Assembly: GCA_027310925.1 (NCBI GenBank)
Contig: DAICZX010000028.1
Span: 1-31,713 of the forward strand
Direction: 5' to 3'
From: Candidatus Parcubacteria bacterium
Lineage (GTDB): Bacteria > Patescibacteriota > Minisyncoccia > Phycocordibacterales > Phycocordibacteraceae
Length of the DNA: 31,713 nucleotides
Both the position numbers and the translations under genes were made by a program. Below the pieces are notes generated by a model. The model saw only the letters and a program-made list of their open reading frames with translations. It was not told where the DNA came from and searched no databases. Each line of letters begins with the position of its first letter. Within the stretch, counting starts at the first letter, position 1. Below are positions 3,502 to 16,122 of this stretch, piece after piece.

Positions 3502-5037
3502 CTAGGTAGCCTGCGTACCGAATGTAAGCACTGAGTCTCCGGCGGAAAGTCCGGAAACAATCTCGGCCATTCCACTTGCACTTTCGATACCAGTGGTCAC
3601 CGGCATGCTGAGAACACCTTTTGCACTTTTTACATACACGAATTCCTGGCTACCATTCGTTATGATGGCACTCGTGGGCACGAGAAGCGCGGCACTCTTG
3701 ATTGCGGTAATGATGCGTAGATTCGCCGAGAGCCCTGGCTTCAAGCGCTCATCATTATTGAGGAAAGTTATCGTGATGCCATAAGAAGCAATACCCTCCG
3801 TGTTCACGTCCGCGGCGGGATCGACTGTTGTGACGGTAGCCGCGAAAGTCGCTCCTGGATACGCGGCGACCGTCACTTCGACCGCATCGTTCATTTTCAC
3901 CTTCGCAATATCAGCTTCCGAAACTTGCGCAGAGGCCTCATACTTCCCGTCCGCAATCATTGATACAAGCGGGACACCGGGCACAACAGTCTCACCGAGA
4001 TTTGCGTTCTGCACGGTGATAGTGCCCGAGATCGGCGCCATGATAACCGTCTGTGAGGCCGACGCTTGTGCCGCAGCGACCGAAGCCTGCGCAGCGTCAA
4101 CGGCCGCCTTCTGCGCGTTGATATCATTCTCAGTCGCTCCCGCGCTCGCGAGCATAAGTGCGCCGGCTGCCATTTTGTACGCGGTATCGGCGGCGATAAG
4201 AGCAGAGAGCGATCCTGAAACATTCAAACGTCCGACATTCACACTCGTCTGGTAGCCGACAATCGTCGTCGCCGAGACGGGACCGCTCGGCTCTGCCTCC
4301 GTGAGAGCCGTCGTGAGATCATCGAGAAAAGTCATGACGTTTTTCAAATTCGCCTCAGAAGGGGCGATTGAATCTTCTGGATTACTCGTGGACGCTAACA
4401 TGTTTTGCCAGGAGGAGAACATCGGTTCAAGCTCGACACGCTTGGCCTGCACTTGGTTCACGAGTGTCGCGTCGGGCACGAGGATCGCTAGCTGTGCGCT
4501 CGTGGTTCTCGGGTTAATGAACACCTGATCAGCTTTCGCATGCACGGCATCATCCGCATTCGTATACGCTGAAGAGAGTGCACTCGTGAGCGCGTTCTCG
4601 GCCTGGACGACGGCCGTCTGATCTATCGCGAGCTGCTCGGGACGTGTGCCTGCGACAAGTGCGGCGAGCTTCGCCTGTTGCGCTTCAAGGTTCGCTTTCG
4701 CAAGTGCGACAGCGGCCACCTGACTCGAATTATCAAGCTTAATAAGCGTCTGTCCCGCCCTGACGTGATCACCAACATGAACCTGTATCGACGCGACACG
4801 GCCGGAAGTCTGAAAGGCAAGATCGGTGCTCTGTGCCGCCTTCACGATACCCGAAACGTCCACTTCTTCGGTAATCGAGCCGATCCTCGCAGGCACGAAG
4901 CTTCCAGACGGAGAAACTGTTGTGGTAAACCACGCAAATCCGACGATCAATACGCCAATGGCAAGGGATCCTCCGAGTGCAACCACGGGCTTTGAGAGAA
5001 CGGTGAGGATAGAAATGAATCGTGTGCGCATGCGCAT
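3502..5037 (-). CDS. Efflux periplasmic adaptor subunit (RND/MacA-like, long coiled coil)
   Basis: LAFQTSGRVASIQVHVGDHV, long Ala-rich coiled coil, APISGTI, LKPGLSANLRI, EIVSGLSAGD. Confidence 0.85.
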   Translation of the reverse strand: MRMRTRFISILTVLSKPVVALGGSLAIGVLIVGFAWFTTTVSPSGSFVPARIGSITEEVDVSGIVKAAQSTDLAFQTSGRVASIQVHVGDHVRAGQTLIKLDNSSQVAAVALAKANLEAQQAKLAALVAGTRPEQLAIDQTAVVQAENALTSALSSAYTNADDAVHAKADQVFINPRTTSAQLAILVPDATLVNQVQAKRVELEPMFSSWQNMLASTSNPEDSIAPSEANLKNVMTFLDDLTTALTEAEPSGPVSATTIVGYQTSVNVGRLNVSGSLSALIAADTAYKMAAGALMLASAGATENDINAQKAAVDAAQASVAAAQASASQTVIMAPISGTITVQNANLGETVVPGVPLVSMIADGKYEASAQVSEADIAKVKMNDAVEVTVAAYPGATFAATVTTVDPAADVNTEGIASYGITITFLNNDERLKPGLSANLRIITAIKSAALLVPTSAIITNGSQEFVYVKSAKGVLSMPVTTGIESASGMAEIVSGLSAGDSVLTFGTQAT

Positions 5038-5122
5038 CTTAAATTACTTAGGTAATTGAAGTATATCAGACTTCATTTTTCTCCGCAATAATGGTACTTT
5101 TTATATAAAGTAGCAGGACGAT

Positions 5123-5830
5123 ATGATCATCCTTATATCAATCGCAGCGTTCTTCTCCACCCTCATCGGCGGACTCTTCGCGCTCTATCTAAAAGATAAG
5201 TTGCCCCTGATTCTCGGGTTCAGCGCGGGAGCGATTCTCGCCGTCGCCTTCTTCGATCTCCTACCCGAAGCGCTCAACCTAGCCGGCAAATTGCACTCGA
5301 CGACAACGGTCCTCGCGGCGATGGCGATCGGATTCATGACATATCTCGTACTCGACCGATCTGTACTCCTGCACAACCATGCGGAAAGCGGGGGTCATCG
5401 CGCTAATGTCGGCGCAGGTAGCCTTTCGTTCCACAGTTTCCTCGATGGTGTCGGCATTGGTCTCGCGTTCCAGGTCTCGACTAGCGTGGGGATCGTGGTA
5501 GCGGCAGCGGTACTCACCCACGATTTCTCCGATGGCATCAACACTGTGAATCTCGTGCTCCGGAATAATGCCGATCGGGCGAAGGCGTTCCGGTGGTTAC
5601 TCGTCGACGCTATAGCTCCCGTCATAGGTGTGCTCTCGACGTTATTTTTCGTCCTACCAGAAGATACGCTCGGTCTTTTACTCGCGCTCTTCTCTGGCTT
5701 CTTCATTTATATCGGTGCGAGCGATCTAATACCGGAAAGTTACCACGCGCACCCCGTGCGTTGGACTACCGTGATGACCGTCACGGGTATGTGCGTGCTC
5801 TACGTGGTCATAAAGCTCGCGAGCATATAA
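5123..5830 (+). CDS. ZIP-family divalent metal transporter
   Basis: Multi-TM protein with HSFLDG and HDFSDG metal-site motifs, FIYIGASDLIPE and a His-containing loop. Confidence 0.85.
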   Translation: MIILISIAAFFSTLIGGLFALYLKDKLPLILGFSAGAILAVAFFDLLPEALNLAGKLHSTTTVLAAMAIGFMTYLVLDRSVLLHNHAESGGHRANVGAGSLSFHSFLDGVGIGLAFQVSTSVGIVVAAAVLTHDFSDGINTVNLVLRNNADRAKAFRWLLVDAIAPVIGVLSTLFFVLPEDTLGLLLALFSGFFIYIGASDLIPESYHAHPVRWTTVMTVTGMCVLYVVIKLASI

Positions 5831-5888
5831 ATACGGGAGGTTCGGCGTTCCTCATGAAACCACTCTTAATAAAGAGAGATTCTTTGTC

Positions 5889-7043
5889 TTAATTCGGAAA
5901 CGAGTGCGAATGCGAGTGCTCCCCTGTTCCTGGGGGAAAATTGCTCCCGCGCAAGACCCAGATGGAAAGAAGTGTCGTGATGGGCACGGCGAGAACGAGG
6001 CCGATACTCCCAACCATCATACGGATGATTTCAGTTGCGAAAATTTCTTGGTTAATTGTTACCGCAAGAGACATATTGGTGAAATGCAAGAGGAGCAAAA
6101 GTGGGAGAGAGACACCAACATACGCAATGGCAAGAGTATTTACCAAAGCGCCTATGTGTTCACGCCCGATACGTTCGGCACGTTTGTAAAGTTGCCATGG
6201 TGTGTAATGTGATGCCGCGCGTTTCAATTCTTCAACAGCTACCGCTTGCCCAATGGCTGCGTCATAAAGGATGCCGAGTAATCCAATCATGATGCCGCCG
6301 AGCAAAAGACCGACAAAGTCTATACTCCCGTTCGTGGCAAAATGGAGATATGTGACTTCTTCCGAACTGTAGCCGGAGAGCATTGCGGCATGCACGGACC
6401 AGTACGCAACCGCTCCCGTGATACAGATGGTCACGATCATGCCGAGCACAGCGGCGGTTGTCGTACGACTAAACCCATGCGTGATATACGAGCCAATAAT
6501 AACGATAAATGATGAGATACCGATTGAAAGCAGAATCGGCGAGTACCCGGCAAGAATACCCGGTAGAAGAACCCAGATGATAGCCGCAAGACTTGCGATG
6601 AGTGAAATGAGTCCACGAATGCCTTGCTTGCCCCCGAAGATGATGATGGTGAGCACGAGAATTCCGCCAAGTATTTCAAGTACCGGGAGTCTGTATGGCT
6701 CCTGCACATTCCAGGTCCCGTTTATCGCACCTCCACTGGAGTGGTCTGCATAGAACTCATCGCCTGGTTTTAGGTTGAGATAGTCATTGTGAACCGTTAC
6801 AGTCATACCCTTTCCCGGACCCTCAAGAATCTCAGCTTGGAGTGTTTGCACCGTCTCACTCGTGTTAGTACCCGGAACGTTCTGGATTGTCTGCGATGTT
6901 ATCTGGAGCACCTTTGCAAGCTCAATATCGTTTGCCCCTTGGTTTTGAGATTGGGCATGGGCCGTGTAAAAGGGTGTACAGAAAAACATGACGGTAAACA
7001 TAGCCCAGAAAACCTTAGCCTGAGAAAATCGCCTATTAGTCAT
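5889..7043 (-). CDS. YibE/F-family membrane protein
   Basis: GILYDAAIGQA and HIGALVNTLAIAYVG motifs. Start moved to ATG 7043 because a TATACT box lies at 7055-7060. C-terminal HSHSHS tail. Confidence 0.85.
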   Translation of the reverse strand: MTNRRFSQAKVFWAMFTVMFFCTPFYTAHAQSQNQGANDIELAKVLQITSQTIQNVPGTNTSETVQTLQAEILEGPGKGMTVTVHNDYLNLKPGDEFYADHSSGGAINGTWNVQEPYRLPVLEILGGILVLTIIIFGGKQGIRGLISLIASLAAIIWVLLPGILAGYSPILLSIGISSFIVIIGSYITHGFSRTTTAAVLGMIVTICITGAVAYWSVHAAMLSGYSSEEVTYLHFATNGSIDFVGLLLGGIMIGLLGILYDAAIGQAVAVEELKRAASHYTPWQLYKRAERIGREHIGALVNTLAIAYVGVSLPLLLLLHFTNMSLAVTINQEIFATEIIRMMVGSIGLVLAVPITTLLSIWVLRGSNFPPGTGEHSHSHSFPN

Positions 7044-7120
7044 GAGACCCCAAAAGTATACTTGTTTAATGTTGGTATTTCTATGCCCTATACAGAACGT
7101 GCGAATAGATGATAATGAAA

Positions 7121-8165
7121 ATTCCTCTTTGAAATGCAACTGCCGTAACATACGGTGGTATGAAAAAGCGCAAAGAATTCAGGTATTTAACCGAACATGA
7201 CCGAGATCGCATCCAGGCCCTGTATGTCTGGGGACACAAGCAAAAAGAGATAGCCGAGGTGCTCGGAGTGAGCCCCGGCACCATCTCCCGAGAGTTGCAG
7301 CGGTACGACAAGAAGACCTGGCGATACTCTGCCAAACGAGCGTAGAAAGATGCTCAAGACAAACGAGAGCAGAGCAAACTCCCGGGCATGAAGATCGAAG
7401 CACTCCCTGAACTGAAGAAACATATCATTCAGGAGCTCGAACGATTGCGCTCACCAGATGAAATAGCCGGACGAATGAAGAAAGAAAAGATGACGCCTCG
7501 CATCGGCAAGAACGCCATATACGAATGGCTGTACAGCGAGTGAGGAAAACCATACTGCTGATACTTGTGCACGAGACGAATCAAGAAACGAAGCCCAAGA
7601 AGACTCGGGAAGAAAATACTCATACCTGACCGAATATCGCTCAGATACAGACCGGATGAGCCAGGTATGGTGCATGCCGAGGGCGATCTCTTTGTCACAC
7701 CAACCAAGCTAGGAGTGAAGACCTGCGGTCTTCTGGTGGTCGTGCCTGAAACACATCTGCTCTCAGGTTCGATTGTCCCAGACAAGATGACCGCGACAAT
7801 CGTTCCGGCCATGCGGCACATCACCAGCTCGCTTCCGCTCGACACCTGCACGTTCGACAACGGTATAGAGAACATCCACCACAAAGAATTCGGCGTTGAT
7901 TCGTACTTCTGTGACAAGGGGTCGCCCTGGCAGAAGCCTCATGTTGAATCATCCACGGCCTTGCTAGACTCTGGTTCCTGCCGAAAGGCACGGACCTCTC
8001 GAAAATATCGGACACCACGTTCCAATCCATGCTGCATCTGCTGAATCACAAGTATCGAAAATCGAATGGCTATCTGAGTGCGTATGAGCTGTCGCTCGGA
8101 CGAGGTATCATTAAAAGTGTTCCGAGAGTTTCCTTAACAAAGGCGATTGCATTTCGATAGGGAAT
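7121..8165 (+). mobile_element. IS30-family insertion sequence (decayed)
   Basis: Imperfect terminal inverted repeats at 7121-7140 (ATTCCTCTTTGAAATGCAAC) and 8146-8165 (reverse complement ATTCCCTATCGAAATGCAAT), 15/20 match, enclosing a transposase remnant. Confidence 0.8.
7160..8160 (+). pseudogene. IS30-family DDE transposase pseudogene
   Basis: HTH (KQKEIAEVLGVSPGTISRELQR), HAEGD, TFDNGIEN, SPWQKPHVE and LNHKYRK motifs. In-frame stops at TAG 7343, TGA 7541 and TGA 7559, plus a 1-bp frameshift near 7955. Confidence 0.88.
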
Positions 8166-8351
8166 ATACCATAACGCTGGAATTGAACTATTCCAAATTC
8201 GTCGCGTAATCCCTAATTATTTTCTCCCCTAAATTCATCCCAGAATTAGGATCCTGGATTCGGTTCGATTCCGGCATCCATCACTTCTATCCGTAAAACA
8301 AAAGATCTCCCTGTTTTCGCAGAGAGACCCCGTCATTGTTACCACCTGATG

Positions 8352-8681
8352 CTATACGTCGCGATGATTGGCTTTGGAGAACCGTCTCCGACGCGATGCC
8401 TTGCGCGATGATGCCTTCCAGAGGTCATAGCGTGTTATCACACCTTCGATATCTTCCTTAAAGATTTCGATCTTCAGCTTGAACTCCGCTATTGCAGCAA
8501 TGGCACTCCGCACACTTGCATAGCCCTTCGGACATCTGAACAAATTACGTTTCGTGCCATCGGCGCACAATTTACTGCTATGCAGATACTCTTGATTCTG
8601 CTCGCCGACAACCTGCACGAGATACTGATTCGTGACAGGATCATCGTTCACCGCCCACACATACCATATCGTTGTTTGCAT
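8352..8681 (-). CDS. Hypothetical protein (109 aa)
   Basis: ATG at 8681 is preceded by a strong SD (TAAGGAGGT). Basic C-terminus; no family recognised. Confidence 0.7.
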   Translation of the reverse strand: MQTTIWYVWAVNDDPVTNQYLVQVVGEQNQEYLHSSKLCADGTKRNLFRCPKGYASVRSAIAAIAEFKLKIEIFKEDIEGVITRYDLWKASSRKASRRRRFSKANHRDV

Positions 8682-8759
8682 ACATAACCTCCTTATAGAT
8701 GACGGAAAGGATACGATCGATACTGTACCTGTATAGCTGATAAAAAACAACGCCGTGTA

Positions 8760-9151
8760 TTAGTCGGCGTTGTGAAGGAACAACGGTGAAGATTCGGGAA
8801 GAATGAAACTGCTGCTACCACCCTTCCGATGCCGATCGGCATCGAGATCCCAAACCCCCTGCGGAAATACGTGGTCGTTGATATCGAACCTTCGCAATGC
8901 CCATATGACGGACAAAAGACTTGGGGCACGACACTACAATAGCACCCGCTGCACAATCGATTCCCGAGGAACCAGATCGCGTGCGATAGCTCGAGCGCCG
9001 ACCATCCTTCTTCAAGAACAATCTGACACAGGAACGGTCGCAACGCTTTCTCGACATCTTCGTTCAGGGCCTTTCCACAACCACTAATGATGCCCGTAGA
9101 AATTGCGAAACACTGCACGTGCGCGTCGACGGGGAAAGCATCTTCCGGTAT
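8760..9151 (-). pseudogene. C-terminal fragment of an endonuclease III / HhH-GPD-like DNA glycosylase
   Basis: AFPVDAHVQ resembles the PVDTH motif, followed by ELSHAIWFLG and a Cys cluster (LCSGC..C-x5-C). A probable frameshift near 8853 gives ...RRGFWDLDADRHRKGG...* ending at 8760. The 5' part is missing. Confidence 0.55.
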
Positions 9152-9590
9152 ACGTATTAACTCGTCGATACCGACGGTCGAGACGAAGTAGCCACGCTCC
9201 CAGAGGCTTTGGCGTTCGTAGAGGCCATGGGTGCGTTTGATTTTCTTCTTCATCTAGGCAGAGCTTTTGCCCTTCAGTATCTGCATGATGTATGAGACTG
9301 ATTATCTCGGCATGGCGAGTAGACAGAGAGCAATGTGGTCTTCCTGAATGCTGAGTTCGATAATCTCCCAGTGTTTCCATTTGGCGATTGTTTCGAAGAT
9401 TCTCCGCAGTTCACCGCTCACCTTGTCTGAGCCGAGGGCTTTGCCTCGGTATTTGGGTGTCCACACGAGATGGTATTTGAGGTCGTAGAAACAATCGGAT
9501 AATGTACGTATCGTACGTTTGTGCTGGCGCATGAGCGTATAAGTGAGTTGCCTTCTAACGTACACTCCGGCTTCGCCGGAGGTTTTTCCT
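9150..9590 (-). mobile_element. IS200/IS605-family element remnant (left end plus truncated tnpA)
   Basis: Subterminal hairpin CTCCGGC-GAA-GCCGGAG at 9565-9581, immediately upstream of a Y1 transposase remnant. No right end seen. Confidence 0.7.
9152..9532 (-). pseudogene. tnpA: IS200-type Y1 transposase pseudogene
   Basis: YDLKYHLVWTPKYRGK, EDHIAL (degenerate HUH), SYIMQILKGKSS and LWERGYFVSTVG motifs. In-frame stops at TAA 9302-9304 and TAG 9254-9256; truncated before the catalytic Tyr helix. Confidence 0.88.
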
Positions 9591-9592
9591 AT

Positions 9593-9620
9593 AAAAAACT
9601 CGCGCACCGGAGTGCACGAG
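9593..9620 (-). terminator. Intrinsic terminator of pyrE-pyrF
   Basis: Minus strand CTCGTGCAC-TCCG-GTGCGCGAG followed by T6, about 30 nt after the pyrF stop. Confidence 0.75.
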
Positions 9621-9649
9621 CTAATTGTTAATGAGACTTCCCATGTTGG

Positions 9650-10390
9650 CTATGCCACAGCCGAAGCGATTTCCTCGATGGTCAACATGGCAGCATCATA
9701 GGGCTTTTCGGCCTTCACGATCGGTCGGCCAACCACTATACGATCCGCTCCTGCTCTAATGGCTTTTGCGGGGGTCATGATGCGTTCCGGATTCTGATCA
9801 TCGCCAGGAACGATCGCCCACGTCGGCCGGATGGCCGGAGTATTGAGCGACAAAACAATGCCAAATTTCGCACGAAGCACTTCTGCCTCTCTGGGAGACG
9901 AGATGAGCCCGTCGAGTTTCGCATCTGCTGCGACTTGGGCGAACCGAATAACAGCTTCCTCGGTTGAGCAAGTGAACATCGCCTTGGTGTCAGCGTCCTT
10001 GAGGCTCGTGAGAACCGTCACGCCGAGCACTTCCGTGTCCGGCAATTCTGTCTTGAGGGCTTGCATGGCGGTGAGACCAGCGACACACATCGTGGTGAGC
10101 ATTTCTGGTTTCGCTTCGCGGATTAGAACACCGTCCGTGGACAACGTCTCCCCGATGTCGATCAGCTTGAGGTCAGCGAAGACCAGCAAACCACGTGACT
10201 GGATTTCACCGATCAGGTCGTAGCCGCAAGCTCGTAGAGCAGAATTCACCTTGAGGTAGACTCCGGTTCCTTTGAGGCTGTCGGCCAATGTCAGGACCTG
10301 GGCTTTCACCCAGTCCCTTCCGTTCTGACCCGTTGGCTTGAAGTCGGCGGCTACGATCAATCGCTCCGCCGGTGTCAGTGCCTTTTGCAT
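9650..10390 (-). CDS. pyrF: Orotidine-5'-phosphate decarboxylase
   Basis: IVAAD, YLKV, FADLKLIDIGET (DxKxxDI), GVTVLTS, TPAIRP, DDQ..IMTP and IVVGRPI motifs. Confidence 0.93.
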   Translation of the reverse strand: MQKALTPAERLIVAADFKPTGQNGRDWVKAQVLTLADSLKGTGVYLKVNSALRACGYDLIGEIQSRGLLVFADLKLIDIGETLSTDGVLIREAKPEMLTTMCVAGLTAMQALKTELPDTEVLGVTVLTSLKDADTKAMFTCSTEEAVIRFAQVAADAKLDGLISSPREAEVLRAKFGIVLSLNTPAIRPTWAIVPGDDQNPERIMTPAKAIRAGADRIVVGRPIVKAEKPYDAAMLTIEEIASAVA

Positions 10391-10418
10391 GTGCTGTTTC
10401 CTTTCGTTTGGGTGAGAA

Positions 10419-11135
10419 TTACTGTTGCATTGTTGCGCAGAGACGCGCCCAATTCTTCTTCACTTCGAGTTCGAGCCTACCGGCGGCGATGTCGACGACA
10501 ACTTCAAGATCGTCCTGTTCGTATTCCGGATACGCCTCACGAATGGAAGCGATCACTGGCAGACCTTTGTAGGTCGTATCGTGAATCGGAGAGCGGTTGA
10601 GCGCCCCGACGAGTAACACAATGTCCGCTCCAGTGACGGCGATTTCGGCGATGGTGTTATCAGTATTCTGGAAATTGTTGTAAACGTCTTCCGCAATAGC
10701 AACACGTTCGCCTTGCTCGAAATCGAACTGCGAGAGGTCCCAGGAGTATTCCTGTTTCTTGCCCGCTTCCGTCGGCTTCGGCTTCTTGTCTGCATACGCG
10801 AACCTCTTGCCGGCGATGAGCGCAAGCATCTGACCGAACGTCCGACCGCCTTGCGGAATTCCGCAGACGGTGTCGAACGAGTCGAGCAGACCTTGGTCAC
10901 TGAGTTTCTGGCAGGCAGCCTCGGCATACGCCTCGACCGCCCTTGGATGAACTTCGATGCGCCGGAAGTTGAAGTAGATGTCTCCGACAAGATTCCGTCC
11001 TTTGCCGTCTTTCCCCGCGTAGGCGACCAGAGGCCCATTGCGTAGAGAGCCGACTTTCGAGCAGACATAGACGGCGTTACAGCGCTTCCCCAGTTCCAGG
11101 AGGTCTTCTCCTGGCAGTGGAATAATTGGCTTCAT
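10419..11135 (-). CDS. pyrE: Orotate phosphoribosyltransferase
   Basis: Type I PRT with YFNFR, VCGIPQGG and the PRPP loop VAIAEDVYNN; adjacent to pyrF; SD AGGAG at 11144-11148. Confidence 0.82.
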   Translation of the reverse strand: MKPIIPLPGEDLLELGKRCNAVYVCSKVGSLRNGPLVAYAGKDGKGRNLVGDIYFNFRRIEVHPRAVEAYAEAACQKLSDQGLLDSFDTVCGIPQGGRTFGQMLALIAGKRFAYADKKPKPTEAGKKQEYSWDLSQFDFEQGERVAIAEDVYNNFQNTDNTIAEIAVTGADIVLLVGALNRSPIHDTTYKGLPVIASIREAYPEYEQDDLEVVVDIAAGRLELEVKKNWARLCATMQQ

Positions 11136-11288
11136 TGGTTATTCTCCTTTGAAAGGACAAGATCACGATTACGCGTTTAAAGCAACGCTTTGGCCCGTGT
11201 CGATTAAATTCGACACCGAGTTGGACGGTATATTAAAATCAACTACTAGTAAAGAGAGGGCTCAAAAATCCTGTTCGATTCCAAATGG

Positions 11289-11583
11289 AAATACGTTGTA
11301 TATATTGAAAACGCAAAAACCACGAAAGTGGTTTTTGCGTGCTTTTCTAGTCGAACAGGGGCGCCGGTACTGTACCGACTTTGACGGGGAACGGTACTGG
11401 CTCCTGGCGTCACAACCGTGTTGCGGGAGGCGGTACGGTACCCGTCACTGCAAGCAATCTAAAGGTTCTTTCGCACTCTCTCTTCCCTCTTTAGCGACGG
11501 GGCCGGTATAGATCAGTTTTGAGATGATTGAAAGGTTTCCAGCAGGTTTTGAACGACGAACAGGAGAAGCGGTACTGTACTAA
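11289..11583. repeat. Cassette junction A (arm type 1, core 11404-11424, arm type 3)
   Basis: 11289-11427 matches 14347-14485 at 124/139 positions. 11428-11583 is a diverged copy of 12687-12845. Confidence 0.9.
11311..11340. terminator. Terminator hairpin in junction A
   Basis: Perfect 13-bp stem ACGCAAAAACCAC / GTGGTTTTTGCGT with a GAAA loop. Confidence 0.8.
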
Positions 11584-11594
11584 AAAATGCTACG

Positions 11595-12551
11595 TCACGA
11601 ATTACCCTCTTCACCTTGAGCCATCTGCGTGTGCCACGCTTCTTCAAACGAGGAACGAACTTCTTTCTGAAGGTTTACTTTCTCATCCTGATTGTCAGAA
11701 CTGAAGTAACGTTCAACAAGGACATCAACTTTTTCTCGCTCAGCGGAATCACGTAATACCCCAAGACATGCGAGGACTCTGAGCGAGCTCTTCCCAAAGG
11801 TCGCTTCAATGGCTTTTAGGGAAAATAGACTCTCGGCAAACTGTCCGCGTTCGAAATCATCCATCACTTCTCTTACAGAAATCCCTTTAGTCGCCGCCAC
11901 TCCTCTAACAATTTTAGAAAAAACATCATTATACTGCGCGTACCCATATTGAAATCCCTCAATATCTTTGTTGGCGATGCCGAGTTCCTGCTCAAGTTCT
12001 TCCTTAGTCGCCTCTAGAATCCTGACCGCCATGTACTCCGTCACGATCTCATTAAATCCCGTGAGAGCCGCACGACCTTCTGGTTCCTTCCATGGGGACG
12101 CAAGCTGATAACCGATCCGTGCAGGAACCGTTCCGTGTTCTTCACTTCCGAAGAACCTATGCTTTGATGCGCGGTGGGTCATTTCGTGAATCAGAGTATC
12201 CAGCAAGTCAGCTCCGCCATGATGTTTGTTCTTATTTACGAAAATCGCATCGTCAAATGCGGAGGCGAAGCCATGATCGACACTATTCCCGAGTCGCTTT
12301 TCATACGCTTCGGCTGACAGCATGTGAATCTTCTCAGAAGGTATCGGTGTGTATGGAATACCGAGATTAGCGAGACGACGCCGCAACAGATCATTTGCCT
12401 TATCAATATACGCATGATCTTCTTCGGTTTTCTCCTCTTCTCCCTCGACAGGCGCGGCAGATTCTTTTGCCCACCTTTCCAAAGACTTTTCCGCTTGAGC
12501 CAACTCCTCCTCGCCATAGGCTCTACCAATGAATTTGGGTCCTTTCTCCAT
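11595..12551 (-). CDS. Putative zinc metallopeptidase (cassette cargo)
   Basis: TLIHEMTHRAS (HExxH) plus a downstream FNEIVTE third-ligand motif. Start MEKGPKF lies 8 nt after a TATACT box. Confidence 0.7.
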   Translation of the reverse strand: MEKGPKFIGRAYGEEELAQAEKSLERWAKESAAPVEGEEEKTEEDHAYIDKANDLLRRRLANLGIPYTPIPSEKIHMLSAEAYEKRLGNSVDHGFASAFDDAIFVNKNKHHGGADLLDTLIHEMTHRASKHRFFGSEEHGTVPARIGYQLASPWKEPEGRAALTGFNEIVTEYMAVRILEATKEELEQELGIANKDIEGFQYGYAQYNDVFSKIVRGVAATKGISVREVMDDFERGQFAESLFSLKAIEATFGKSSLRVLACLGVLRDSAEREKVDVLVERYFSSDNQDEKVNLQKEVRSSFEEAWHTQMAQGEEGNS

Positions 12552-12558
12552 ATGGATG

Positions 12559-12845
12559 AAGTATAGCTTGATTCTCAAAACGCAAAAGCCGCTCTTTCGA
12601 GCGGCTTTTGCGTACGTGATGCCGAGCGGTACTGTACTGGTCCCAACGGGGAACGGTACTGGTTCCTGGCGTCACAACCGTGTTGCCCGTGTCGGTACTG
12701 TACCCGCCACCGCAAGCAATCCAAAGGTTCTGTCGGCTCTCTTCTTCCCTCTTCGTCGACGGGGGCCGGTATGGGTCGGTTTTGGGATGATTGAAGGATT
12801 TTGGGCGAGTCCCGATAAGCAAACAGGCGGGGCGGTACTGTATTA
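12559..12845. repeat. Cassette junction B (arm type 2, core 12666-12686, arm type 3)
   Basis: 12559-12639 is identical to 14167-14247 (81 bp). Contains five CGGTAC-type boxes and the 21-bp core. Confidence 0.92.
12580..12613. terminator. Terminator hairpin in junction B
   Basis: Perfect 15-bp stem ACGCAAAAGCCGCTC / GAGCGGCTTTTGCGT. Confidence 0.85.
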
Positions 12846-12847
12846 AC

Positions 12848-14161
12848 TTATACAACAGACTGTAGTTCATCAATCGCATTTGCAGTCTTTGCGATCCGAT
12901 GCATTTCATTTTCGCGAAAAAACGGAACGGAATGTCCCATCGCTATGGCGAATTTCCTGTGCTCCGGTGTATCGGACACAAGCCCAGCGCCGAGAGAACC
13001 TTTGTGTTCTTCACGTTGAGTTTTCGCTTTCTCGAGAGCAGAAGTTTGAAACATGGCTGGATCGTACATGCCCACGACTTCAGTCGAACGCACTTCAGGA
13101 GGTAGAGGAACTCCGTCGCGCAAATTTCCTATGATTTCTGCGATAGCTTCTTTTTTCAAAGCTTCCTGCTCCTTACTCATGTTCTTAGATATCCCCTGTT
13201 CAGCCATTCGTGTATCCACCTTATCCATAAACGGTTTCTCTCTAAAAGTAGCAGTACGAGCGTAGGGGTTCGTAAGAAGATTGTAGAGACCGTCGAGCGC
13301 AAATCCTGCTGGCAATTGCCATCGCTTCCTCGAAGTCGGGAGATCACTCGGCCCTACAGGAACATCAAGACGAACATTTAAGAATGGTTTGATGTCGCGT
13401 TCGTCTTGAGACTGCGTGGCTATCCCGTCTTTCAAAACCTGTGCTGCGGTTTCGGCTGCAAGGCTTCCACCCATCGAGAGGCCAGAAAACAGCACATCGG
13501 TTTTCGCGCTTACCTTATCCGCAGATAGAACAGAATCGACAAAAACAGCATAGGCCTTGCCGAACTGTTCAAACGCATGATCGCCGTGCATTGCTTCTAC
13601 GAACTCATCTGATACCGATCCATATTCATTCGATGGAGAACCGAGTACGTAGAGCTCGTCTGATTCAGGATCTCTTCTCTCAGAAAGTGCTTCAAGCGCG
13701 CGTGGCAAACGTGCAACGACCTGATGCATCACTTCTTCGAAGAAGCAGAATTGATTGCCATTTTGAGGGTTCAAGAATGTCCCGAAAACAAATTCTTTTT
13801 TTGATTTCTTCTCAGCCCCAGCATCTTCAGCTTCTTCTCGATTTTTCTCCGCAGCAGGAATCTTGTCAGAGGATTGCTGCAATTCTCGTGCAATATCTCC
13901 CACGCGGACGACTGTCCACGGGAAAGATGCGCCAACTTCTTTTGCTTCAAAAACAGCACTGTTTCGAATACCTTGCTCAGTGAGCGTTTCAAATAGGCGC
14001 CTAACGGTCTCTACTGATTCGAGATTAAGGTTATTCTCCTTTGCATATTTTTCAAATGCCGTGATTGCGTATTCTGCATGATGAGTGAGTATCTTTTCTC
14101 GTGCATCGAGAGCAGATTCTTTCTCACTCGATGTAGTAGGTTTTGGGAAATTCTCTTTCAT
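12848..14161 (-). CDS. Putative alpha/beta-hydrolase, lipase-like (cassette cargo)
   Basis: FSGLSMGGSLA (GxSxG nucleophile elbow), with candidate Asp (GMYDP) and His (MGHSVP). ATG lies 6 nt after TATACT. Confidence 0.65.
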   Translation of the reverse strand: MKENFPKPTTSSEKESALDAREKILTHHAEYAITAFEKYAKENNLNLESVETVRRLFETLTEQGIRNSAVFEAKEVGASFPWTVVRVGDIARELQQSSDKIPAAEKNREEAEDAGAEKKSKKEFVFGTFLNPQNGNQFCFFEEVMHQVVARLPRALEALSERRDPESDELYVLGSPSNEYGSVSDEFVEAMHGDHAFEQFGKAYAVFVDSVLSADKVSAKTDVLFSGLSMGGSLAAETAAQVLKDGIATQSQDERDIKPFLNVRLDVPVGPSDLPTSRKRWQLPAGFALDGLYNLLTNPYARTATFREKPFMDKVDTRMAEQGISKNMSKEQEALKKEAIAEIIGNLRDGVPLPPEVRSTEVVGMYDPAMFQTSALEKAKTQREEHKGSLGAGLVSDTPEHRKFAIAMGHSVPFFRENEMHRIAKTANAIDELQSVV

Positions 14162-14166
14162 GCTTC

Positions 14167-14343
14167 AAGTATAGCTTGATTCTCAAAACGCAAAAGCCGC
14201 TCTTTCGAGCGGCTTTTGCGTACGTGATGCCGAGCGGTACTGTACTGACCCTGATGGGGGTCGGCACTGGTTCCCCTCCTTCGCCAAGGCTACGGACGGG
14301 CAATGCTGGCGTCACAACCGTGTTGCGAGAAAAGGAGTCGAAC
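14167..14343. repeat. Cassette junction C (arm type 2 with a 32-bp insert, core 14306-14326, degenerate tRNA 3' fragment)
   Basis: 81-bp identity with junction B; core CTGGCGTCACAACCGTGTTGC; GGAGTCGAAC at 14334-14343 corresponds to the tRNA T-loop. Confidence 0.88.
14188..14221. terminator. Terminator hairpin in junction C
   Basis: Identical to 12580-12613. Confidence 0.85.
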
Positions 14344-14346
14344 TAA

Positions 14347-14485
14347 AAATACGTTGTATATGCTGAAAACGCAAAAACCACTTTCGTAGTTTTTGCTCGC
14401 ATTTCTAGCTGAACAGGGGCGCCGGTACAGTACCGACTTTGACGGGGAACGGTACTGGTTCCTGGCGCCACAACCGTGTTGCGGG
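14347..14485. repeat. Junction D (arm type 1 plus core 14462-14482 overlapping the tRNA-fMet 3' end)
   Basis: Direct repeat of 11289-11427; the core ends inside the tRNA acceptor stem. Confidence 0.9.
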
Positions 14486-14769
14486 GGTCGGAATCGAACC
14501 GACGTCTGGAGGTTATGCTTACCACTACAACTTTCGTTGCTCTTGCACATTTGATTTGTGGTCTGGACTATGCCTTCACCCACGAAGGGTGTCTACCGTC
14601 TAGTCTCTACACCTTCCCTTCTCCTTACTGAGAAAGGCTTGGCTCGGTATTGCCGTGCGCTTATGGGCGCGAGGGTTTCACCGAATTTGGCAGATGATCT
14701 TATGCGCAATTACTCGCGCAAACGCCCGAATTGTTCAAGCCTCCCGAGGTACCTCTCCTCTACCCCGCT
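14479..14769 (-). tRNA. tRNA-fMet (CAT), intron-containing
   Basis: 5' exon 14769-14738 (AGCGGGG TA GAGG AGAGGTA CCTC G GGAGG CT) and 3' exon 14517-14479 (CAT AA CCTCC AGAC GTCGG TTCGATT CCGAC CCCCGCA A) form a full cloverleaf. The 1:72 mismatch and A11:U24 pair indicate the initiator. CCA is not encoded. Confidence 0.92.
14518..14737 (-). ncRNA. Group I self-splicing intron (220 nt, no homing endonuclease)
   Basis: Inserted after U33 and ends in G. P/Q/R/S-like elements AAATTCGGTGAAACC, AATACCGAGCCAAG, GTAGAGACTAGACGG and AGGCATAGTCCA; P7 GACTA/TAGTC. Confidence 0.9.
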
Positions 14770-14776
14770 ATTAGAA

Positions 14777-14782
14777 AGTATA
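14777..14782 (-). promoter_or_regulatory. -10 box of the tRNA-fMet promoter
   Basis: TATACT ending 7 nt upstream of tRNA position 1. Confidence 0.6.
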
Positions 14783-14921
14783 CACAAGGAACCATGTTAA
14801 GCAATAATCCTCTACAGAACCATGACTCGAAGAATCGCGATAAGAGGAACGGGTAAGCGGACATTTCCAGACTCATATTGGCGTCATTGTTGCACTCAAT
14901 TCTGTGTTTTTAAGGAAGACG

Positions 14922-16064
14922 CTACCGAATGGTTGCGTCATATGTCACTGCCGTGGCTGCTTCAAGTTTTTTATGAAACTCGTTTACTTCATTATTGGTG
15001 AGAGTACGTTCAACGCTGCGATACGTAATACGATAGGCATAGCTTACGGCACCCACGCCCAATTTCTTTTCGTTTTGATAGGTATCAATTAGCTTCACTT
15101 CTTCGACCAAATCGCCAGCAATATCGCGTACCAGATCAAAATAATTATTCGGTATGAATTCTTTCCGAACGATAAAAGAGATATCGCGAACAACGGGCGG
15201 ATACTTGCTCACCTCTTTGAAAGCTTGCCCGAGCTTCAACTGTTTCTTGACACGCTCATCACCTGACCATAAAAGCCGGATATCCGGTAGCTCCATTGAG
15301 ATGATGGCGAGTCGCTCAAGACCGAAGCCGAAAGCCCAACCGTTCCATATCGACGAGTCGACGCCAAGGTTATCGAGCACACTCCCTTTCACCACGCCCG
15401 CACCCAACACTTCGACCCATGTGCCGTTACCGTCTTTATCGACTTCCATCTCAAGGGAAGGATCAGTGTACGGGAAGGTGTCCGGGTTGAAGCGATACTT
15501 CACATTCGGACCGAACGCCGCTCTGGCTATATCAGAAAGAACTTTTTTGAGGTCTTCAATGGTGATGATCCCCTTCTCTTTGGGCGCAAGATACCAGCCA
15601 TCAATCTGATGGAATACGTTCATATGCCGTCGATCAATTTCATCCTTTCGGTATACCTTACCGAAGGAGAGCGCCCCGACCGCCTCGCCTGCCACAATTT
15701 TTTTCCGAACGCTCTCTTCTTTAAGCCAGTAGTACCACATCACCGTAGTGTGTGTACGCAACACGTGCGTGTCATTGACAAAATACGAGTCGGATTTTGA
15801 ACGGGCTGGATGGTCCTTAGGGAAGTTGAAAAGATCGAAGACAATGTCCGTACCAATAATTTCAGGTATCTCAATCACATCGTAGTTCTTAAAATCGGGA
15901 ATAGCCTGGATGCGCTGCACGAGCTCATATAGCGGATTATGTGGAGTTCGCGAAAGATCGGGCATCGCCAAATACCGCTTCATTCGCGTTGCCTCTATGT
16001 CCGTTCGTTTCTCCAATTCCTGCTTCAACCGATTTTCTTCGGCCTTCGTTATTTTAATATCCAT
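14922..16064 (-). CDS. pheS: Phenylalanine-tRNA ligase, single-chain type (alpha catalytic domain plus C-terminal FDX-ACB)
   Basis: DHPARSKSDSYF, LRTHTT, GKVYRKDEID..H..VFHQID, FPYTDPSLE and GWAFGFGLERLA motifs, then YPPVVRDISF...YRSVERTLTNNEV (anticodon-binding domain). Start moved to MDIK. Confidence 0.92.
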   Translation of the reverse strand: MDIKITKAEENRLKQELEKRTDIEATRMKRYLAMPDLSRTPHNPLYELVQRIQAIPDFKNYDVIEIPEIIGTDIVFDLFNFPKDHPARSKSDSYFVNDTHVLRTHTTVMWYYWLKEESVRKKIVAGEAVGALSFGKVYRKDEIDRRHMNVFHQIDGWYLAPKEKGIITIEDLKKVLSDIARAAFGPNVKYRFNPDTFPYTDPSLEMEVDKDGNGTWVEVLGAGVVKGSVLDNLGVDSSIWNGWAFGFGLERLAIISMELPDIRLLWSGDERVKKQLKLGQAFKEVSKYPPVVRDISFIVRKEFIPNNYFDLVRDIAGDLVEEVKLIDTYQNEKKLGVGAVSYAYRITYRSVERTLTNNEVNEFHKKLEAATAVTYDATIR

Positions 16065-16122
16065 TACACCATAATGTAACAAAAAAGTAGCTAAAACAAC
16101 AATATTTGCACCAAATTAAAAC

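Follow-up and report, generated by a model that had tools for sequence, protein, structure and literature searches.

What are the short boxes that recur at fixed distances from one another behind a tRNA gene in a 31,713-nt stretch of a Candidatus Parcubacteria genome (GenBank assembly GCA_027310925.1, contig DAICZX010000028.1), and which enzyme would they serve? Within this stretch, called the window below and meant at its full length, the boxes surround four repeated junctions, A to D. A first-pass annotation, made from the sequence alone, had described them as an attP-like arrangement of protein-binding sites around a 21-bp core. Comparison with related genomes makes it probable that the boxes are conserved DNA motifs in both attachment-site (att) arms of integrative elements at the 3' end of tRNA-Met(CAU) in ultra-small, Kaiserbacteria-type members of the candidate phyla radiation (CPR), and that the enzyme is a large serine recombinase.

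Boxes confined to a single locus

The consensus CGGTACWGTAC was scanned on both strands, allowing at most one mismatch, and the result was compared with the shuffled window. CGGTACNGTAC starts at positions 11365, 11431, 11570, 12627, 12693, 12833, 14235, and 14423, and the 14 strand-hits compare with 0.4 expected, a count reached in none of 100 shuffles. Box1 and box2 are 27 bp apart in all four junctions, and CTGGCG begins 12 bp past box2 in junctions A, B, and D. On the other side, box3 starts 6 bp beyond the core and is followed by box4 at +73/+74 and box5 at +66. Box1 is a perfect palindrome in junctions A and D, and CAAC-CGT-GTTG is found within the core. All of the positions and distances that the first-pass annotation had read from the sequence hold, and the genome scan with a position weight matrix that it had suggested was made. 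The source assembly is 617 kb in 82 contigs and is 82% complete. When the matrix, trained on 54 boxes that all came from other genomes, was used to score 1,231,202 positions of this assembly, the ten best positions all fell at this locus, to which both the box and the core CACAACCGTGTTGC are restricted in the whole 617-kb genome.

The boxes are not equivalent. By the matrix, the full motif is confined to boxes 1, 3, and 5; box2 (CGGTACTGG), a half box, ranks 103-213 of 1.23 million, and box4 fits the matrix poorly (rank above 1700) yet is a strongly conserved motif of its own, GGGGGCCGGTATGGGTCG. In junction C, box2 is degenerate (CGGCACTGG) and lies 32 bp farther from the core. An isolated box-like site (ATCGATACTGTACCTG, 8716-8731), which ranks 11th in the genome by the same matrix, stands apart in the outermost unit of the locus, E4. 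Because junctions A-D are paralogous copies of one repeat, their equal spacing is inherited and does not count as independent evidence; such evidence for the geometry must therefore come from other species.

Attachment sites at the 3' end of tRNA-Met(CAU)

The target gene and the four junctions occupy the following positions:

14479-14769, minus strand: tRNA-Met(CAU) gene, the integration target (Rfam RF00028, 58.6 bits; ARAGORN on the spliced exons)
14738-14769, minus strand: 5' exon of tRNA-Met
14518-14737, minus strand: group I intron
14479-14517, minus strand: 3' exon of tRNA-Met
14477-14482, plus strand: crossover TGTTGC of junction D, from the comparison of attP, attL, and attR, with attB found
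14423-14476, plus strand: P' arm of D, with box1 at 14423-14435 (perfect palindrome), box2 at 14450-14458, and an invariant stretch at 14450-14476 that adjoins the crossover
14235-14326, plus strand: junction C, with box1 at 14235-14247, the degenerate box2 at 14262-14270, a 32-bp insertion, the core, and TGTTGC at 14321-14326
12627-12686, plus strand: junction B, attP-like (P'-O-P), with box1 at 12627-12639, box2 at 12654-12662, and TGTTGC at 12681-12686
11365-11424, plus strand: junction A, attP-like, with box1 at 11365-11377 (perfect palindrome), box2 at 11392-11400, and TGTTGC at 11419-11424

The tRNA-Met gene is split between U33 and C34 by the 220-nt group I intron, which accounts for the Rfam match. 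Unspliced, it is missed by ARAGORN; its spliced exons are recognised as a tRNA-Met(cat) of 72 nt, in which A1/A72 is mismatched and CCA is not encoded. Core D adjoins its 3' end. In sister species the gene is intron-less, carries the same intron, or has a different sequence inserted after GGAGGTT, and the intron-less joint 14517>14738 seen in community contigs is the tRNA of other community members.

The limits of the site can be read from relatives in which the arms bound whole islands. Far junctions of these islands run from an RNA-gene end and a terminator to cTTGTTGC, followed by CCGTGT-box3-box4-box5, and tRNA-side junctions run box1-box2-CTGGCGTCACAACCGTGTTGC (also written as box1-box2 with CACAACCGTGTTGC at the end), followed by the GGGGG of the tRNA. 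If the far ends are attR and the tRNA-side ends attL, then the empty site is predicted to be TTGTTGC followed by GGGGG(tRNA). Exactly this attB, TTGTTGC-GGGGG, is present in 71 of 222 genomes of the genus, the source genome not being among them. In many of the genomes with an empty attB, a plain terminator lies directly to the left, with neither boxes nor the core; therefore, the arms are element DNA. Element and target share only TGTTGC (6-7 bp), which corresponds to G70-C71-A72-A73 of tRNA-Met plus two trailer nucleotides. Strand exchange would take place inside TGTTGC, the sole stretch common to the element and the empty target. The 21-bp core, previously taken as the centre of the site, is mostly inner P' arm, and its identity with the target is limited to TGTTGC at its right edge.

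By this decomposition, junctions A and B are the places where one unit meets the next, attP-like P'-O-P joints produced by tandem insertion, and junction D is a P'-O-tRNA joint of the tRNA-side (attL) type. Junction C reads as a decayed joint, in which a P' arm variant with a 32-bp insertion stands beside a decayed T-loop-like remnant. A and B carry the full attP-like layout, and the earlier proposal that the junctions are sites of mobile elements is borne out. The complete layout is box1, 27 bp, box2, 27 bp, TGTTGC, 12 bp, box3, 73 bp, box4, 66 bp, and box5, spanning about 230 bp, with the outer boxes at distances from the crossover of 54 bp (box1, on one side), 85 bp (box4), and 151 bp (box5, like box4 on the opposite side). 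This layout is better read, in place of the original 2+3 division, as a central block of about 55 bp that runs from box2 to box3 and is joined by the single outer box of the P' arm and the two of the P arm. The CAAC-CGT-GTTG palindrome and GGTAC/GTACC motifs lie in and around the -27 to +25 block.

The target itself contains a box-like sequence. The T-arm of the tRNA, GTCGGAATCGAACCGA, ranks 265 of 1.23 million by the box matrix, compared with 3733 for the T-arm of a control tRNA-Ser, and its position relative to TGTTGC in attB is exactly that of box3 in attP. The shared register and the T-arm score together imply that the P half-site imitates, or descends from, the tRNA half-site, and suggest that one protein domain may read both box3 and the T-arm. 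Extending this mimicry to all of the boxes gained only moderate support and was not retained; at its rank, the T-arm lies well below the real boxes.

Conservation of the geometry in relatives

Junctions were surveyed in 150 sampled genomes of the same genus, and spacing was counted on distinct arms from relatives (50 P' arms, which carry boxes 1 and 2, and 32 P arms, which carry boxes 3 to 5). Junction DNA is present in 52 of the 150 genomes, often in two to five copies per contig, 1-20 kb apart. From box1 to TGTTGC the distance is 54 bp in 33 of the 50 P' arms and 64 bp in four more, and from box2 to TGTTGC it is 27 bp in about 34 of them. Similarly, box3 and box4 are 73-74 bp apart in 23 of the 32 P arms, and box3 and box5 are 139-141 bp apart in 21 and 130 bp apart in three. 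Arm length variants thus differ by 10 bp, which is one helical turn, and such steps fit phased protein binding and point to a double-stranded DNA geometry. Mean arm identity across relatives is 68% for P and 80% for P', and information content is highest at the boxes and without a break from box2 through box3, a block that spans about -27 to +25 relative to TGTTGC. The first-pass annotation had named loss of the spacing in homologous junctions of other genomes as the result that would speak against it; instead, the geometry is kept across the arms of relatives.

One part of the arm is more similar between species than the hosts are. Module b, a terminator plus promoter-like stretch of about 87 bp with a -10-like TATACT 6-8 nt ahead of ATG (window 12552-12626 and 14160-14234), is together with box1 and box2 92-94% identical across species (G005, G031, G087, G105, G118, and G129), whereas the GatA proteins of those same genomes are only 65-81% identical. 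The comparison suggests that arms were recently exchanged between species.

A large serine recombinase in related islands

All five islands of 12-17 kb that are bounded by these arms (G005, G031, G105, G144, and G146) carry the gene of a large serine recombinase, about 445 aa long. The protein combines Resolvase, Recombinase, and Zn_ribbon domains with an N-terminal YARKST motif and matches structures of the SPbeta SprA serine integrase; in L038, for instance, it is encoded at 13748-15085. A PF00589 search of the five islands and of the source genome locus found no tyrosine integrase in or near any of them. The PF00589 matches in the five island-bearing genomes and the source genome, one per genome except for two fragments in G105, all lie on contigs other than that of the island. 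A tyrosine integrase acting as in phage lambda was therefore rejected as the enzyme, and with it the lambda-type analogy first drawn for these sites. The comparison with resolvase res sites fails as well: the recombinases are of the large serine type, at about 445 aa, and the site of about 230 bp has another layout.

Box type follows the recombinase. Among loci of species-representative genomes that encode a recombinase at least 76% identical, seven of nine have a CGGTAC-type P' arm and a tRNA-type end downstream, and in one of them (L133) the arm begins about 110 bp past the recombinase stop codon; at two loci (L122 and L123), no tRNA end was found in the stretch examined. Two recombinases about 64% identical adjoin a different arm family, with GGTCTTGAAC/CGGTCTG boxes and another inner sequence. 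This second family (L145-L148, L155, L167, and L168; L125 and L126) has the same TGTTGC at the same tRNA-Met site, and its box2 is likewise 27 bp from TGTTGC; its boxes are 37 bp apart, placing box1 10 bp farther out than in the first family. The box type thus changes with the recombinase clade (the groups of about 76% and about 64% identity). Mixed joints, with a P' arm of the second family and a P arm of the first, occur in arrays, for instance in L147, as tandem insertion predicts.

The islands share two further genes: a ParB_N-N6/N4 methyltransferase in five of five, and a protein of about 215 aa that resembles HTH_Tnp_1_2 (a helix-turn-helix, HTH, family) and the Sf6 small terminase in four of five. 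Other island cargo is variable and of defence type, including a DpnII system, superfamily 1 (SF1) helicases, and a WYL protein.

A separate observation concerns LOOT RNA (Rfam RF03000, 67-83 bits), a small RNA motif that is not known to have an assigned function. It occurs once in each of four of the five large islands (L043 4059-4170, L040 7691-7803, L037 6392-6510, and L038 7579-7719), of which it seems to be a conserved part, and not in the window.

Proposed function of the boxes and alternatives

If the boxes are motifs of an attachment site, then the enzyme would be the large serine recombinase of the full-size family members in sister species, and the cassettes in the window would depend on this island recombinase in trans. 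Box2 and box3 would delimit a central site of about 55 bp, a size that suits a recombinase, and the recombinase likely binds both; box3 would be the imitation or descendant of the tRNA T-arm that occupies the same register in attB. Boxes 1, 4, and 5 would be additional, helically phased sites, bound either by the recombinase or by a DNA-binding protein of the element, for which the HTH/small-terminase-like protein of about 215 aa is a candidate, and all of the boxes together would assemble a larger nucleoprotein complex. Of the original claim that conserved spacing marks sites for a recombinase or accessory protein, the conserved spacing stands, and its 10-bp steps add to it; the binding itself is a prediction from that spacing.

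Several observations weigh against this proposal. Large serine recombinases are known for att sites that are no longer than about 50 bp and lack accessory sites, and the outer boxes are thus unexpected. The central dyad symmetry is imperfect, its centre (the G of CGT) lies 1-5 bp to the left of the presumed exchange region, and the GTACC motifs are about 5 bp asymmetric if exchange occurs in TGTTGC. The sequence that flanks box1 in type-b arms, CGTGATGCCGAG, is similar to that ahead of box3, so that box1 could be a decayed older joint rather than a functional site. There is no recombinase gene in the window, and the closest homologues in the 82%-complete source genome are only 54-63% identical, on short contigs (C11, C27, and C33), one of them with an in-frame stop. 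Finally, no excision or empty-site joints were found in the assembled contigs of four mine-drainage runs that hold the locus, in which contigs break at the repeats.

The homologues in the source genome were considered as the cognate enzyme and set aside, as they are unlinked to CGGTAC boxes at that level of identity; the cassettes in the window may be stranded, or the 18% of the genome that was not assembled may encode their enzyme. Beyond the recombinase homologue (63%, in-frame TAG) on one of the three contigs (C11, about 4750-7200) come a terminator hairpin, the motifs GGTACCGAACC and CGGTCGC, and a T-arm-like GCGCAGGAATCGAACC, an arrangement that may represent the same arm architecture at another tRNA-like target.

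The boxes could instead act as base-paired stems, either in a structured RNA or in a single strand that folds as integron attC sites and the ends of IS200/IS605 elements do. An example would be a 3' untranslated region or tRNA trailer in which the right half of box1 is paired with box2 and the spacer between them forms a small hairpin. These two segments are inverted repeats of each other; sequences folded singly yield hairpins of -10 to -22 kcal/mol, and small palindromes, differing in sequence, occur in several spacers. Each cassette would transcribe the arm as a 3' untranslated region ending at the terminator module, and fragments of the IS200/IS605 transposase TnpA are present in E4. However, when the 12-pair hairpin was scored on 26 distinct arms, 77.6% of pairs were formed compared with 78.3% in column shuffles, with one double change and no covariation. 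Because there is no excess over column shuffles, the pairing of box1 with box2 is compositional. RNAalifold on 28 P arms gave only -7.9 and -4.3 kcal/mol (two strands, 170 nt), no Rfam family matched the arms even at E up to 1, and a scan of 7300-14900 returned the intron and sub-threshold chance matches. Length variants of exactly 10 bp are a feature of double-stranded DNA geometry, and TnpA is not conserved in the islands. Covariation had been named at the outset as the sign that the boxes are RNA stems; it is absent from the 26 arms, the reading of the boxes as DNA sites stands, and an RNA or folded-strand origin is very unlikely.

Two further explanations accept the boxes as DNA and differ in what they do. 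They could be functionless scars, that is, decayed copies of the T-arm or of att half-sites that were left by repeated tandem insertion and deletion and inherited with the arms. This would agree with the T-arm register of box3, with the score of the T-arm as a weak box, with recognisable pseudo-tRNA remnants at the box3 position in some junctions, and with the resemblance of the left flank of type-b box1 to the TGTTGCC-box3 segment. Scars would not, however, be expected to form the information peaks of arms that are otherwise 68-80% identical, to keep their positions in dozens of distinct arms from different species, or to vary in length in 10-bp rather than random steps, and the second arm family has different boxes at the same 27-bp box2 distance; this explanation is accordingly considered improbable. 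Slightly less probable still is a function outside recombination, in packaging (pac/cos-like sites for the small-terminase-like HTH protein), as operators, or as GTAC methylation switches tied to the ParB-methyltransferase. At small-terminase sites such as lambda cosB and SPP1 pac, repeated boxes are arrayed to either side of the cut site, the islands carry the HTH protein (four of five) and the methyltransferase (five of five), and a related element (L173) has a large-terminase-like gene. Nevertheless, the crossover lies at the centre of the boxes, the block that box2 and box3 delimit has the size of a recombinase site, and box type changes from one recombinase clade to the other; additionally, the G105 island has boxes but no detectable HTH gene, and no clear homologue of the HTH protein or the methyltransferase was found in the source genome.

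Returning to the att-site proposal, a more ambitious version of it is tentative and, in our estimate, doubtful. The attP of about 230 bp would resemble an intasome, in which extra half-site copies that mimic the T-arm, phased on both sides, control synapsis or direction without a separate directionality factor and allow an integron-like capture, stacking, and release of recombinase-less cassettes at tRNA-Met. One may speculate that, if box3 is the equivalent of the T-arm, then only two types of site exist, P'-bearing and flank-bearing; a single reaction would then serve for both insertion and excision, and the flank-side joint could admit new units.

Units stacked in the window

Four units make up the stack, of which one is empty and 156 bp long, two are single-gene cassettes, and the last, with pyrE/pyrF, is decayed:

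14327-14422, plus strand: E1, which with the P' arm of D forms the cargo-less 156-bp unit; decayed T-loop-like remnant at 14327-14345 and terminator module a
12687-14234, minus strand: cassette E2, with P arm at 12687-12846 (box3 12693-12705, box4 12767-12778, box5 12833-12843)
12848-14161, minus strand: cargo open reading frame (ORF) of E2, 437 aa, weak Lipase_3 match
14160-14234, minus strand: terminator/promoter-like module b of E2
11425-12626, minus strand: cassette E3, with P arm at 11425-11583 (box3 11431-11443, box4 11504-11515, box5 11570-11580)
11595-12551/12578, minus strand: cargo ORF of E3, 318-327 aa, without a family match
12552-12626, minus strand: module b of E3
8337-11364, minus strand: outermost unit E4, with module a at 11277-11364, pyrE-like gene at 10419-11135, pyrF at 9650-10390, TnpA fragments at 9084-9607, and unassigned ORFs

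Read on the minus strand, the order is tRNA, core D, box2 and box1, module a, the T-loop remnant, core C, box2' and box1, module b, and the 437-aa ORF; then box5-4-3, core B, box2 and box1, module b, and the ORF of about 320 aa; then box5-4-3, core A, box2 and box1, module a, the pyrE-like gene, pyrF, and the IS200-type fragments. The stretch 14335-14500 (repeat D2) is 84% identical to 11277-11442, and the insertion-type arm of junction C is also found in relatives (L111, L099, and L047). In E4, the TnpA fragments are two overlapping ORFs that match the N-terminal half of IS200/IS605 TnpA and are probably frameshifted. Neither the pyrE-like gene nor pyrF or TnpA was found at this locus in 20 relatives. 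The far end of E4, TTGTTAC at 8337-8343, follows a T-arm-like RNA end and a hairpin, looks decayed, and has no box-type P arm; the stack probably ends here, a boundary placed by the resemblance of the layout to the attR flanks of relatives. A promoter and terminator scan added nothing.

E1-E3 are flanked by complete sites and contain no integrase; sister species have relatives that share these arms and do carry an integrase, at times within one and the same array (G105). By these features (integrase-less, att-flanked, and related to integrase-bearing elements), they class as cis-mobilizable elements (CIMEs). A homologue of the 437-aa cargo, 89% identical, is encoded at 4001-5308 of an ENA metagenome contig (L173), within a different element, which is without CGGTAC boxes and whose genes include those of a large serine recombinase and a methyltransferase as well as a large-terminase-like gene. 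DNA homology to the E2 cargo stops at the ends of the ORF. Since it does so in a box-less element, arms and cargo recombine independently, and the idea that this cassette moved as a unit was dropped; no second copy of the same cassette was found.

Two observations concern the chromosomal flanks. The flank opposite tRNA-Met (window 8250-8343; attR flanks of L041, L043, L079, and L076) carries GGTTCGATTCCGG, a T-arm-like end with a terminator, convergent with the tRNA; ARAGORN and Rfam recognised no RNA gene there in most genomes. On the other side, a single-chain phenylalanyl-tRNA synthetase (PheRS) of 386 aa, with a class II core and a ferredoxin-fold anticodon-binding domain, is encoded at 14922-16082 on the minus strand, between tRNA-Met and a conserved 192-aa gene. 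As none of 20 related loci has a gene at this position, the PheRS gene may itself be an insertion 5' of tRNA-Met.

Significance and comparison with known systems

Tandem serine-recombinase islands at an RNA gene are already known. The present locus differs in its host lineage, in the very short overlap with the tRNA, in its single-gene units, and above all in arms of 230 bp with five phased boxes. Serine integrases are valued for genome engineering because their sites are short and neither accessory DNA nor host factors are needed. A family with phased accessory boxes, if confirmed, would represent a different mode of control for such enzymes and could explain the mobilisation of integrase-less cassettes; if the boxes are only inherited scars, the locus would be an ordinary integration hotspot. 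In either case, it is a hotspot of gene flow in CPR genomes of 0.6-1 Mb, with cargo here or in relatives that includes restriction-modification, helicases, and WYL proteins (defence), hydrolase-like proteins, and possibly pyrE/pyrF. The definition of the site, TGTTGC plus arms, permits islands and cassettes to be mapped exactly in hundreds of genomes.

The islands at ssrA in Dehalococcoides, which encode the CcrB-like large serine recombinase DsiB, are similar in that they are stacked in tandem at the gene of a small RNA, with the 3' end of that gene and short repeats of it as their boundaries, have extra conserved sequence beside the repeat, and include integrase-less units that were read as cis-mobilizable (PMC3146451). 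In contrast, the target here is tRNA-Met(CAU) rather than the transfer-messenger RNA (tmRNA) gene, the identity is 6-7 bp rather than 20 bp, and no second small recombinase was seen. The arms of about 230 bp with five phased boxes also set the present elements apart, as do the many units that are single-gene cassettes of 1.3-1.6 kb. Composite tandem arrays of the staphylococcal cassette chromosome (SCC) likewise include recombinase-less units that are moved in trans. SCC, SCCmec, and pseudo-SCC elements, with CcrAB or CcrC at rlmH, share with the present locus a serine-recombinase element at the 3' end of one housekeeping gene (PMC3146451). They differ in host phylum, target gene, and recombinase clade, and their att sites are short inverted or direct repeats without a described multi-box arm.

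Tycheposons of Prochlorococcus are cargo elements at a few tRNA genes, among them tRNA-Met(CAT), in variable islands with partial tRNAs, and some resemble phage-inducible chromosomal islands (PICI) with terS; 910 of 937 use tyrosine recombinases and a minority large serine recombinases, and partial tRNAs of about 40 nt serve as their att sites (10.1101/2020.12.28.424599). Here, the overlap with the tRNA is 4 nt plus trailer, and the arms contain repeated boxes. Integron arrays are alike in that single-gene cassettes stand in tandem, parted by a conserved recombination site, but the present array has neither IntI nor attI and no folded-strand signature of the attC type, each cassette has its own terminator/promoter-like module, and the array stands on a tRNA gene. 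The res sites of small resolvases belong to enzymes with a C-terminal HTH and consist of three dimer subsites within about 120 bp, unlike the site of about 230 bp and the recombinase of about 445 aa described here.

The enzyme itself is closest to those of the canonical serine-integrase sites (phiC31, Bxb1, A118/LI, and SPbeta SprA), with the same domain set, a short identity between attP and attB, and a central block that is conserved for about 55 bp. The canonical sites work without accessory DNA, whereas boxes 1, 4, and 5 lie here at fixed distances outside the central block. A literature search found no paper that describes accessory sites for a large serine recombinase, an absence that is not proof. 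In its overall plan the site resembles attP of phage lambda, which also spans about 230 bp and has repeated motifs that flank a short crossover at fixed spacing, and this likeness suggests a higher-order complex. Lambda attP is served by a tyrosine integrase together with IHF, Xis, and Fis, and its arm-type and core-type sequences are separate. Here, by contrast, there is no tyrosine integrase with an arm-binding domain, and a single matrix describes both box3, beside the crossover, and the outer boxes 1 and 5.

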